Positions 1 through 36,242 of a DNA stretch of 56,265 nt are shown one piece after another. The notes under the pieces are model-generated. The model ran no database searches, was not told the origin of the DNA, and was given only the letters and a program-made list of their open reading frames with translations. A program made the position numbers and the translations under genes. The stretch covers positions 1 to 56,265 of the forward strand of contig JAJYWD010000004.1 in assembly GCA_021791655.1 (NCBI GenBank). Direction: 5' to 3'. This DNA comes from Nanobdellota archaeon. GTDB lineage: Archaea; Nanobdellota; Nanobdellia; Parvarchaeales; Parvarchaeaceae. How positions within the stretch are numbered: the first letter of the stretch is position 1; each line of letters begins with the position of its first letter.

Positions 1-872
1 CCGTCTTCCCCTCATACAAGGGATACCCAGGAGATTATCTCATCCTCCCCGACCAGTCCCACGATTTCATCCTCACCAATGCCTGTCCCAACGGCACGGG
101 GCACTTCTCATCCACGGTGACCGTGTCGTACACCGAAGTCGGTCAGGTGTTCCCGGGGCCCTATCAGTCAACAGGGACGATATCGGGGAGTTCAGTCACC
201 CAATGGCCGCTGTACATGTCTTCGCTGGTCGGCTACTGGCCCTTTGATGAGGGCAGCGGGACTACGGCGAATGATCTGAGCGGGAGCGGAAACACCGGTA
301 CACTAGTTAATAGTCCGACATGGGAAAGTGCGGCCAACTGTAAATTTGGATCCTGTCTAAATTTTAATGGCGTTAACCAATATGTTCAAACGAATGGGCC
401 AGTCTTTAGCGGAACTCCTTCTTCATTTACTATGATTATGTGGTTTAAGAGAACTGGTGCAGCTGCTGCTTATGGGTATGTCCCAATCGCAACCAAAAGC
501 GATACTAGTTTTATTCTTGAGGTAGAACGTGGCGGTGATCAACTTTTCTATACAACATATGGTTGTGTACCAGATGTGCCATTGCCAAATATAGGCTCAA
601 CAAATGTCTCAGACGGGGATTGGCATGAAATCGGAATAGAGTATATCGGTGGAAAGATGTATCCTATTCTAGACGGGCAACTTGGAACGGGTGTTTCTAC
701 TTCTATTTGTTCGGTTTCTGGTAGCGATACCTTCGCATTTGGTGCACAGCCGTCGCAATCTCTGTATTCCGGTGAAAATGAACAAGATATCCGCTACTAT
801 AGCGGCACTGCCCTCTCTGCTTCAGCGATAGCAGCGCTCTACCAGTCTTCCGTGCCGGACTTCGAACACTGA
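1..872 (+). CDS. 3' part of pilin-like/LamG (concanavalin-like) surface protein; starts before the window
   Basis: Frame open from position 3 (VFPSYKGYPGDYLILPDQ...GQVFPGPYQSTGTISG), homologous to the N-module of 37899..38900; then LamG motifs LVGYWPFDEGSG, LNFNG, DGDWH, DIRYY..ALS. Confidence 0.85.
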   Translation, partial: VFPSYKGYPGDYLILPDQSHDFILTNACPNGTGHFSSTVTVSYTEVGQVFPGPYQSTGTISGSSVTQWPLYMSSLVGYWPFDEGSGTTANDLSGSGNTGTLVNSPTWESAANCKFGSCLNFNGVNQYVQTNGPVFSGTPSSFTMIMWFKRTGAAAAYGYVPIATKSDTSFILEVERGGDQLFYTTYGCVPDVPLPNIGSTNVSDGDWHEIGIEYIGGKMYPILDGQLGTGVSTSICSVSGSDTFAFGAQPSQSLYSGENEQDIRYYSGTALSASAIAALYQSSVPDFEH

Positions 873-944: not shown

Positions 945-1952
945 ATGCCGCTGCCGTTCGAAGGAAAGACACATGAAGTGATCTCTGTTCGTGAAGAGAC
1001 CACGGATGAAAAATATGGCGTATACCCGGAGAAGCGGACTATAGAGCAGAAGATACCCTATGGGTTCGTGCTTCTCGACAAGGCGGCTGGCATGCGGTCT
1101 AAATCCGCAGCAAACGTCGCAAAACGGCTGCTCTCCGTGTTAGGCGTTAACAAGGTCGGCTATTCAGGGACTTTAGAATAATGAAGAAATCCCGGAGTCA
1201 CTGGCCTTTTACCGCTAGCCTTGAACAACGCAAACAAAGCCATTTCTATGCTCTTATTGGGCGGAAAGGAATACGTGGCCTTAATGCACCTGCACAAGGA
1301 AGTAGGCAATGACGAACTAACAACTGCCATTTCGAAGTTCGAGGGGAAAATAACCCAATTGCCGCCGGTTAGGTCCAACGTGAAGAGAGAATACCGGCAG
1401 AGAGAAGTGTACGCGCTTGATATCCTGGAAGTCTCCGGTAAAGACGTTTTACTGCGCGCAGAGGTCGAGTCCGGAACGTACATAAGGAAGTTAGTGCATG
1501 ATATAGGTGAGAGCCTCAAAGTCGGAGCGCATATGTCTGAACTTAGACGCACCAAAGTCGCAAATCTGACCGAAAAGGACAACCTTGTGACATTGCAGGA
1601 CATAGAAGACGCCACCTACTACCGAACAGAAGAGCACAACGACAAGTTTTTGTCATATGTCCTACAGAACATGGAAAAGGCGATAGATTTCATGCCTAAG
1701 GTTTGGGTCTCGGACTTTGCGGTTGATAGCATTTCCCACGGTTCGCCCCTTGCCGTGCCAGGGATGGTGAAAATTAACGACTTTGAGAAAGGAGAAATGA
1801 TATTTTTGTCTACGCTAAAGGGTGAGCTTATAGCTTTGGGTAGAGCGCTCGAGTCTTCTCAAGAAGCAATAAAAATGCACAAGGGGATAATAGTAAAGAC
1901 GGATAGCGTGATAATGCCAATCGGGACTTATCCGCGCTACATCAAATCTTAA
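945..1952 (+). CDS. cbf5: Cbf5 pseudouridine synthase, two exons (945..1176, 1189..1952), 331 aa after splicing
   Basis: ORFs 945..1181 and 1221..1952 are in one frame; removing 1177..1188 restores GYSGTLDPGVTGLLP; also Q.PPVRS.VKR, ESGTYIRKL.HDIG, GAHM.ELRRT and a C-terminal PUA domain. Confidence 0.93.
1177..1188 (+). other. 12-nt mRNA intron (AATAATGAAGAA) with BHB-type splice motif
   Basis: GGGA1167-70 pairs with TCCC1190-93; CTTT1171-74 pairs with GAAG1183-86; 3-nt bulges AG^A and AA^A; cleavage after the second bulge nucleotide gives GAT (Asp). Confidence 0.88.
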
Positions 1953-1953
1953 A

Positions 1954-2042
1954 GGGGTGGTAATATAGCTTGGTCAGTATGCCAGACTAGGGTGCCCATC
2001 ATAGAACTCTGGTAATCCTGGGTTCAAATCCCAGCCACCCCG
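1954..2042 (+). tRNA. tRNA-Pro (AGG) with 14-nt intron at 37/38 (1993..2006)
   Basis: Acceptor GGGGTGG/CCACCCC, D stem ATAT/GTAT, anticodon stem CCAGA/TCTGG, T arm CTGGG-TTCAAAT-CCCAG; spliced loop CT-AGG-GC; body resembles archaeal tRNA-Pro. Confidence 0.8.
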
Positions 2043-2129: not shown

Positions 2130-2258
2130 ATGACAAAAAAGAAACCCTACATTAACGATAAGATACAAACGTACGAGATGCGATATGCGCACGGTGCCGA
2201 TCTGGCACAAATCATCAGATTAAGCAAGATTGCTTGGTCAGCGTGCTACAGCAAATGA
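2130..2258 (+). pseudogene. Possible N-terminal fragment of a GNAT acetyltransferase
   Basis: 42-aa ORF ...YEMRYAHGADLAQIIRLSKIAWSACYSK*, fitting the GNAT beta1-alpha1 pattern. Confidence 0.4.
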
Positions 2259-2398
2259 AAGGGCGCTTATGTGGTAACACAGCGCCGAGTAATGAATGCA
2301 CCGCTACTGTAGAGGACCTTCGCATTTACAACACCGCTCTTTCCGCCCCAGCGATAGCAGCGCTTCACCGATTTTCCGTGCCGGACTTCGAACATTAG
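2255..2398 (+). pseudogene. Orphan C-terminal fragment of the LamG surface-protein family
   Basis: VEDLRIYNTALSAPAIAALHRFSVPDFEH*; 2349..2398 matches 823..872 at 42/50 nt. Confidence 0.8.
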
Positions 2399-36158: not shown

Positions 36159-36242
36159 TGGACCGGGAGGGATTTGAACCCTCAGCCTCCGCCATTTTCG
36201 ATATCTTGCGAAAGCGGCGTCATGCCGTTAGACCACCGGCCC
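36159..36242 (-). tRNA. tRNA-Ala (CGC) with 12-nt intron at 37/38 (36195..36206)
   Basis: G3-U70 in GGGCCGG/CCGGTCC; loop TT-CGC-A[AGATATCGAAAA]T; central helix TTCG/CGAA. Confidence 0.93.

Follow-up and report, generated by a model that had tools for sequence, protein, structure and literature searches.

We analysed a 56,265-nucleotide (nt) stretch of the genome of a Nanobdellota archaeon (contig JAJYWD010000004.1 of assembly GCA_021791655.1, positions 1 to 56,265 of the forward strand; hereafter the window), in which positions 945-1952 (+) hold a full-length cbf5 gene with one single interruption. The assembly consists of 831,740 bases in 28 contigs, with 98.7% completeness and 45.7% G+C. 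From ATG 945 the frame reads GGG ACT TTA G, is then broken by AATAATGAAGAA (1177-1188), and resumes as AT CCC GGA GTC ACT GGC, which places the 12-nt insert directly after the first base of the catalytic Asp codon. Translated in frame, the insert gives E, TAA (1179-1181), TGA (1182-1184), R and N, followed by PGVTG. Excision of 1177-1188 restores GAT and the sequence GTLDPGVTG, which matches nine intronless congeners at these codons, and the alternative excision of 1178-1189 leads to an identical product. The parts of the gene are as follows.

945..1176, + strand: cbf5 exon 1, made up of codons 1-77 and of G1176, with which the catalytic Asp codon begins
1177..1188, + strand: putative 12-nt intron AATAATGAAGAA, with predicted cuts at 1176/1177 (5') and 1188/1189 (3')
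1189..1952, + strand: cbf5 exon 2, AT of the Asp codon, PGVTG, and on to the stop codon TAA at 1950-1952

The read-through product, with X put at both stops, was compared with protein family models. It matched the Cbf5 equivalog NCBIfam NF003280 at 336.8 bits (cut-off 242), covering residues 11-334 of 336 positions, and the Pfam domains DKCLD, TruB_N, TruB_C_2 and PUA were all found on it. The genome contains this single cbf5 gene and also encodes Nop10, while a PF04410 search of the same genome for Gar1 gave no match, a model that missed one of four archaeal controls too. An earlier interpretation of this DNA made from the letters alone (the sequence-only reading) had named the gene cbf5, and the profile and domain matches bear this out. 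Its placing of the insert, with two in-frame stops, within the catalytic Asp codon agrees with the sequence and translation, and its statement that standard endonuclease cuts would give exactly GTLDP holds on paper when 1177-1188 is removed. It had also expected annotation pipelines to call two open reading frames (ORFs) or a pseudogene; an automatic list of ORFs indeed shows two, 78 and 243 aa long.

The two listed ORFs could be taken to mean that separate 78-aa and ~243-aa polypeptides assemble as Cbf5, and split genes are known in Nanoarchaeum. However, there is no start codon at PGVTG, and the ORF list has its first start only at TTG 1221, which is 10 codons further on and within the conserved core. 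Moreover, the catalytic Asp is encoded by neither piece, nine congeners carry an uninterrupted gene, and the co-varying helices described below would be left unexplained. We consider a split enzyme of this kind extremely unlikely.

We regard it as very probable instead that the 12 nt are an archaeal bulge-helix-bulge (BHB)-type intron in the cbf5 pre-mRNA, in a relaxed form. Positions 1150-1215 were folded, and the minimum free energy (MFE) structure reached -22.6 kcal/mol (z = -3.65), with none of 200 shuffles equally stable. This fold contained both helices and the AAA bulge of the motif, whose elements are listed below.

1167..1170, + strand: 5' strand GGGA of the outer exon-exon helix, formed by the Gly codon plus the first base of the Thr codon; pairs with 1190-1193
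1190..1193, + strand: 3' strand UCCC of the outer helix, formed by the final base of the Asp codon and the whole Pro codon
1171..1174, + strand: exonic strand CUUU of the central 4-bp helix, formed by Thr positions 2-3 and Leu positions 1-2
1183..1186, + strand: intronic strand GAAG of the central helix; pairs with CUUU at 1171-1174
1175..1177, + strand: triplet A-G^A with the predicted 5' splice site, followed by loop 1178-1182 (AUAAU), in which A1178-U1182 can pair
1187..1189, + strand: 3-nt bulge A-A^A with the predicted 3' splice site, present in the fold and by RNAalifold

The window copy thus has the 4-bp central helix, the 3' 3-nt bulge and the outer helix of a BHB motif, and lacks the second closed 3-nt bulge on the 5' strand that belongs to the strict helix-bulge-helix-bulge-helix (hBHBh') form. 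Since AGA is not closed, with at most one closing pair (A1178-U1182), the motif is a relaxed bulge-helix-loop form. All 12-nt introns seen retained A...U or G...U at the ends of their inner 5 nt. The structure put forward by the sequence-only reading is therefore upheld for the helices GGGA/UCCC and CUUU/GAAG and for the AAA bulge, whereas AGA, which it had described as a second bulge, is the start of an 8-nt loop.

We ran the survey of DPANN cbf5 genes for the same insertion that had been proposed with the sequence-only reading. In the genus, cbf5 was present in all 33 species genomes, with an insert of exactly 12 nt in 24 and uninterrupted GTLDP in 9. The 12-nt consensus was A-A-NNN-T-GAAG-AA, with variation limited to the three loop letters except in one genome (G042), where exon CCUU was paired with intron GAGG. 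Sister genera of the family carried a 16-nt insert in 4/5 genomes and a 15-nt insert in 1/2. The 16-nt form, whose inner ends GUG/CAC can make three pairs, shifts the frame and so must be removed.

The class was searched with two patterns, both of which need GGGAC...ATCC and PxVTG, so that other codon choices escape them. The first also constrained the 3' end of the intron and yielded 42 matches, 37 of them true, against 4 control matches; five (G082, G262, G210, G162 and G261) were not in cbf5 and were rejected. The second fixed the exon letters only, with 9-39 free letters between G and ATCC. Applied to 401 genomes of the class, 388 of which had a cbf5 match by protein search, it found matches in 43, with 42 within cbf5 and 11 GTDB-style families represented, and the reversed control gave 1. 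The match in G333 was an intronless gene read in another register and was discarded. The same pattern was applied to 251 genomes of a second DPANN group, the phylum to which the Aenigmatarchaeota-titled genome G405 belongs; none of them had occurred in the class search, so that this group is distinct from the class of the window. Five had the insert, all in cbf5, with 12 nt in three and 15 nt in two; the control gave 0. Across these 47 genomes the insert lengths were 12 nt (27 genomes), 13 nt (2), 14 nt (1), 15 nt (5), 16 nt (4), 22 nt (3), and 18, 19, 21, 23 and 34 nt (one each).

The class itself comprises several hundred species with genome sizes of 0.3-2.1 Mb. The nearest named Cbf5 relatives of the window copy (47-53% identity) come from metagenome-assembled genomes titled Candidatus Woesearchaeota, Aenigmatarchaeota or 'archaeon', and the Woesearchaeota-titled Cbf5 sequences nest among same-class genomes in the Cbf5 tree. 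These relatives, together with a genome of 0.83 Mb at 98.7% completeness, support the earlier assignment of the host as a probable DPANN archaeon.

This distribution also bears on the possibility that an error of assembly or sequencing in this single record produced the insert; in favour of such an artefact, one can point to a draft genome in 28 contigs. The same site and length recur in 23 other species-level genomes of the genus, with variants in 18 more class genomes, five genomes of the second group and three metagenome contigs, and the probability that we assign to an artefact is negligible.

Other irregular cbf5 genes were seen during the survey. In G028, G132, G212, G065 and G117 there are stops elsewhere in the gene, and the Asp-codon junction is intronless. 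Another gene of the same class (L119, at G031:C60:1800-3400) is intronless at the Asp codon and has a +1 frame change within ~22 codons downstream, which is either a frameshift or an assembly error. In a further gene (L120, on G548:C6), the frame of the cbf5 C part stays open over 504 aa, roughly double what is usual, and could be a fusion or a lost stop.

Pairing across the insert was examined in 46 distinct junctions over the eight pairs of the two helices. Standard pairs filled 367 of the 368 cells, with 21 cells changed on both sides, and the outer helix was paired in 184/184 cells. Variation was found at pairs 23-71 (G-C in 32 rows, G-U in 14), 28-63 (U-A in 30, C-G in 15, A-U in 1), 29-62 (U-A in 40, C-G in 5, C.A in 1) and 30-61 (U-G in 29, U-A in 17). 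The exon/intron variants of the central helix were CUUU/GAAG, CUUU/AAAG, CCUU/GAGG, CCUU/AAGG, CUCU/AGAG, CUCU/GGAG and CACU/AGUG. The intronic strand of this helix was left free in the second search pattern, and it is there that the compensatory changes sit. None of 500 shuffles reached the observed percentage paired, the number of double-sided cells or the covariation score, and slid partners paired in at most 62.8% of cells. From the alignment of the 46 junctions alone, RNAalifold recovered the same eight pairs and the bulge unaided, and added a 3-pair outer exon helix of invariant coding letters outside a 3x3 internal loop.

The inner segment was examined in the same way. A count by eye found complementary segment ends in 22 of the 24 distinct introns from the class; in the 12-13-nt forms they were reduced to one pair. 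In stand-alone folds, the 22-23-nt forms made 4-5 pairs (the inner helix h'), and segments of up to 11 nt, including those with GUG/CAC, gave 0.0 kcal/mol. What is conserved at this site is helix geometry, not codons.

A different explanation would leave the RNA unspliced and have the ribosome read through the stop or hop across the 12 nt. A stable hairpin does lie beside the stop codon, and a hairpin by a stop superficially resembles known bypass sites. However, read-through gives GTLE-x-x-RN-P, without the catalytic Asp, and GAU arises only when G1176 is joined to A1189-U1190 in RNA. No matching in-frame take-off and landing codons could be read, the 13-, 14-, 16-, 19-, 22-, 23- and 34-nt versions alter the frame, and recoding does not account for the conservation of helix geometry rather than codons. 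Ribosomal recoding thus retains only a minimal share of probability.

Selection on the flanking codons was assessed in family f1, leaving out three genes in which Ser replaces Thr (L032, L033 and L038) and L119, for its frame break. The intron-bearing genes used GGG, TTA and GAT in 29/29 cases each, and CCC or CCT in 29/29. Among the 10 intronless genes, GGG was used in 0/10, GAT in 6/10, GAC in 4/10, CCC or CCT in 3/10 and CCA or CCG in 7/10. Synonymous letters are thus held fixed only at positions that need to pair. We also calculated the ratio of nonsynonymous to synonymous substitution rates (dN/dS) among 12-nt genes of the genus (19 of the 24), using ungapped equal-length segments and a C-part dS of 0.05-1.5, which kept 38 of 171 pairs. 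The medians over the 38 pairs were 0.13 for the N part and 0.058 for the C part, indicating that the parts on both sides of the stops are translated as constrained protein.

These values speak against a disabling insertion that has turned cbf5 into a pseudogene or a dead 78-aa fragment. Such an inactivation would fit the two in-frame stops, the failure of PF04410 to find Gar1 in this genome, and the reduced nature of DPANN genomes. Against it, 24 species of the genus share the insert, and their cbf5 genes have neither further stops nor broken frames; dN/dS stays at 0.06-0.13 both before and after the in-frame stops, and the full-length match exceeds the equivalog cut-off. The helix positions co-vary, synonymous sites near the insert are frozen only in insert-bearing genes, and Nop10 is present. 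We consider inactivation very unlikely, and return to the intron in the following.

The sequence-only reading had judged the intron to be near the minimum possible size. Inserts of 9-11 nt were permitted by the pattern, and none was found in the 652 genomes searched. We then scanned metagenome contigs for 7-11-nt inserts, which returned 105 stretches, about the chance level by our own estimate. Once flanking Cbf5 codons were required, three contigs with an 11-nt cbf5 insert at the same site were obtained.

L137:1436-1481, - strand: 11-nt case, metagenome contig
L175:4471-4516, - strand: 11-nt case, metagenome contig
L224:386-431, + strand: 11-nt case, metagenome contig

In all three, the 200-aa piece after the insert scored 268-290 bits on the Cbf5 model, starting from its position 68. 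L175 is very G+C-rich, with a central helix CCCU/GGGG, and so comes from a quite different organism. With the flanking codons required, the scan gave no 9- or 10-nt case; lengths of 7-8 nt were checked with the downstream filter only. L201 and L229 were rejected as intronless look-alikes. An intron of 12 nt is therefore near-minimal, as had been claimed, but not the minimum, being one above the shortest seen (11 nt). This floor of 11 nt equals the length of the tRNA-Gly intron in the same genome, and 11 nt is quoted as a lower bound for archaeal tRNA introns in Yokobori et al. 2009 (PMC2738675).

The genome of the window was also scanned for other ORF-breaking inserts of 10-30 nt with the 4+4-pair geometry. 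The scan gave 26 matches including cbf5, against 19-35 in seven altered-bulge controls, and hence no enrichment. A looser first version had given 321 matches.

We searched for the enzymes that could process such an intron. Each of the 33 genus genomes had one EndA gene (PF01974), with a frame of 172-214 aa. In the genome of the window this gene is split by contig ends, with the N-terminal domain at C16:21520-21813 and the catalytic domain at C4:1-261, suggesting that the two contigs abut. RtcB was present (514 bits), and the genome thus encodes both EndA and an RtcB-type ligase. Cleavage by the tRNA splicing endonuclease, as the sequence-only reading had supposed, is consistent with the presence of both enzymes and is refined by the finding of only a single, alpha-type EndA gene.

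The tRNA introns of the same genome were then compared with the cbf5 insert. With introns allowed, ARAGORN reported 31 tRNA genes, seven of them with introns (11, 12, 12, 13, 13, 37 and 52 nt). Parsed by hand, tRNA-Ala(CGC), two tRNA-Leu and tRNA-Gly(CCC) all follow the order stem, 4 bp, NN^N, 4-6-nt loop, 4 bp, NN^N, stem. Two tRNA genes in the window are of interest here.

36159..36242, - strand: tRNA-Ala(CGC) with a 12-nt intron, used as comparator; same 1+5+4+2 layout as cbf5, parsed by hand
1954..2042, + strand: tRNA gene with an intron, Rfam 52.7 bits; starts 2 nt past the cbf5 stop

The tRNA gene at 1954-2042 was missed by ARAGORN even with introns allowed. By our parse it has a 14-nt intron, the anticodon loop CUAGGGC and the anticodon AGG. 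In congeners a tRNA-Pro with anticodon CGG, with or without an intron, lies at the same place, and the genus as a whole keeps a tRNA-Pro there; a tRNA-Pro with A34 would be unusual among archaea. Two further intron-bearing tRNA genes, at C12:59621-59719 and C12:60408-60506, were labelled Ser(TGA) and Val(CAC) by ARAGORN. Both look like tRNA-Leu with 13-nt introns, having spliced anticodons UAA and CAA and long variable arms. The junction of the Leu(UAA) gene closely resembles that of cbf5.

Several observations weigh against the intron interpretation. Cleavage, ligation and any regulatory role are predicted here from comparative and structural evidence, and all genomes compared are metagenome assemblies. 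Three RNA sequencing runs searched for the stretch contained none of it (share 0.00), which counts neither way. In the fold, the 5' splice site lies outside any closed 3-nt bulge, as AGA opens the 8-nt loop. A stable h' helix is absent (the inner 5 nt give 0.0 kcal/mol), and the MFE structure favours a fifth pair, A1175-U1182, which leaves a 6-nt loop. Among the 46 junctions, that of G550 has the C.A mismatch in the central helix, and two of five whole-structure measures were not above the shuffles: 274/500 shuffles attained the observed value for 'pairs with a change on both sides' (228/500 in a 41-row version), and 500/500 that for 'further standard pair types' (484/500). Moreover, GGGAC and ATCC are set in the search patterns, which thereby dictate three of the four pairs in the outer helix.

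The remaining points on this side concern the enzyme. The only EndA found is of the alpha type: the 177-aa protein of a congener can be aligned nearly gap-free with the subunit of the M. jannaschii homotetramer (1a79, E 8e-32), and it lacks the 5-residue insert of the ARMAN-2 enzyme. Searches with PF01974 and PF02778 at E <= 10 revealed no beta subunit, and jackhmmer with a congener EndA over the 6548 ORFs of the genome gave no second EndA, although a very divergent beta subunit may have escaped these searches. In the account of Kaneta et al. 2018 (PMC5829648), alpha4 enzymes had been regarded as strict for the full motif; they are also said there to occur in DPANN lineages with many disrupted tRNA genes. 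The loop-type introns in the tRNAs of this genome mean that the cell must already cut such substrates, which gives the view of alpha4 strictness less weight.

We propose that the G-T-L-D-P codons and the insert would fold as a mimic of a pre-tRNA anticodon arm with a canonical 37/38 intron. EndA would cut after the second nucleotide of each triplet, and RtcB would join the exons to give the GAU of the catalytic Asp and the uninterrupted Cbf5 reading GTLDPG. Since unspliced mRNA stops at TAA/TGA after 78 codons, active Cbf5 would be made only once the tRNA-splicing enzymes had acted.

To trace the history of the intron, we mapped its presence on a tree of the Cbf5 C part with 75 rows. Intron presence required at least 7 changes, and the well-supported branches alone forced 4. 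Within the family, 22 twelve-nt genes formed one clade and 7 intronless genes another. A separate clade, with a Shimodaira-Hasegawa-like approximate likelihood ratio test (SH-aLRT) support of 98, contained 10 intron-bearing genes from 7 families, and the Cbf5 of the second-phylum clade clustered with Aenigmatarchaeota-titled sequences (SH-aLRT 98). Each of these changes may be a gain or a loss, as telling the two apart takes a rooted species tree. The site shared with Crenarchaeota may reflect the self-complementary ends of GGG-ACN-YUN-GAU-CCY, or the intron may be old.

Taken together, these results lead us to a wider proposal, which we offer tentatively, as a serious but not a favoured possibility. 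The Asp-codon intron may be no peculiarity of Crenarchaeota but a trait of archaeal cbf5 that either recurs or is very old. In this view, the G-T-L-D-P codons would form the anticodon-arm mimic (GGGA...UCCC), so that inserts pairing with the Thr/Leu codons would repeatedly become spliceable and be trimmed to a physical floor of 11-12 nt, and would be processed by a plain M. jannaschii-like alpha-type EndA, without a beta subunit or known specificity loops. If this is true, the proposed link of archaeal mRNA splicing to hetero-oligomeric EndA would be broken, and Cbf5 synthesis would be a read-out of tRNA-splicing capacity in many DPANN archaea. The data pose the question of parallel gain at a predisposed site versus an old intron that was lost many times.

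It is extremely rare for the tRNA-splicing endonuclease to remove introns from protein-coding genes, and the present survey would extend the cbf5 intron from Crenarchaeota to at least 47 species-level genomes of two DPANN groups, with co-variation as clean as in a curated RNA family. For annotation, it follows that cbf5 in these genomes will be called as two ORFs or a pseudogene. For enzymology, an EndA resembling the strict homotetramers would have to handle motifs without an inner helix, both in an mRNA and in its own tRNAs.

The cbf5 gene is flanked in the window by ORFs at 3-872 (+) and 2234-2398 (+), which have near-identical C-termini (...ALS-A-x-AIAAL-x-x-SVPDFEH). The 2234-2398 ORF (54 aa) may be a remnant, or a C-terminal module of a surface-type protein that occurs in repeated form.

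Finally, we compared the insert with known systems. The cbf5 pre-mRNA intron of Crenarchaeota was reportedly described by Watanabe in 2002. The DPANN and crenarchaeal introns are likened here by site and motif. The crenarchaeal intron is reported by Yokobori et al. (PMC2738675) at the same site, after the first letter of the catalytic Asp codon, with cleavage between the second and third bulge residues and a size of 16-44 bp, which confirms the statement of the sequence-only reading that cbf5 introns occur at this codon in Crenarchaeota. That reading knew of no DPANN example, and none was met in our full-text searches of the papers available to us, as judged by titles and abstract openings. 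A 2023 review (PMC10485636) counts two genes with endonuclease-removed introns and places that of cbf5 only in a small group of related archaea. Yokobori et al. (PMC2738675) also mention 12-bp insertions in an archaeal virus, and we dropped a link to these because the insert lengths are not multiples of 12.

The DPANN insert resembles the cbf5 intron of Aeropyrum, Sulfolobus and the Desulfurococcales, as far as described in these sources, in gene, insertion point and predicted cuts. In both, the motifs are mostly relaxed, close relatives may have or lack the intron, and alleles without it read like the spliced product. They differ in lineage, with two DPANN groups here in place of Desulfurococcales and Sulfolobales, and in size, as 12 nt here and 11-34 nt in relatives contrast with the 16-44 bp of the crenarchaeal introns. 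The crenarchaeal case was tied to a hetero-oligomeric EndA, whereas a single alpha-type gene is found here, and splicing was demonstrated there by cDNA and enzyme assays, whereas here it is predicted from sequence and fold.

Compared with canonical 37/38 BHB pre-tRNA introns, the insert has the same stem, the same 4-bp helix between exon and intron 3' end, the same 3' 3-nt bulge and the same predicted cut after the second nucleotide. It falls in the 11-13-nt length class of the pre-tRNA introns of its own genome and shares the layout of tRNA-Ala(CGC). Unlike these, its host is an mRNA without a tRNA body, the 4-pair stem is made of Gly/Thr and Asp/Pro codons, and the extra 3-pair exon helix outside the 3x3 internal loop is found in cbf5. 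The mRNA intron of HVO_1309 in Haloferax volcanii, likened here by its description in the review (PMC10485636), is similar in being a non-crenarchaeal mRNA cut by the tRNA endonuclease without a hetero-tetrameric enzyme, and differs in lying in another gene and another lineage.

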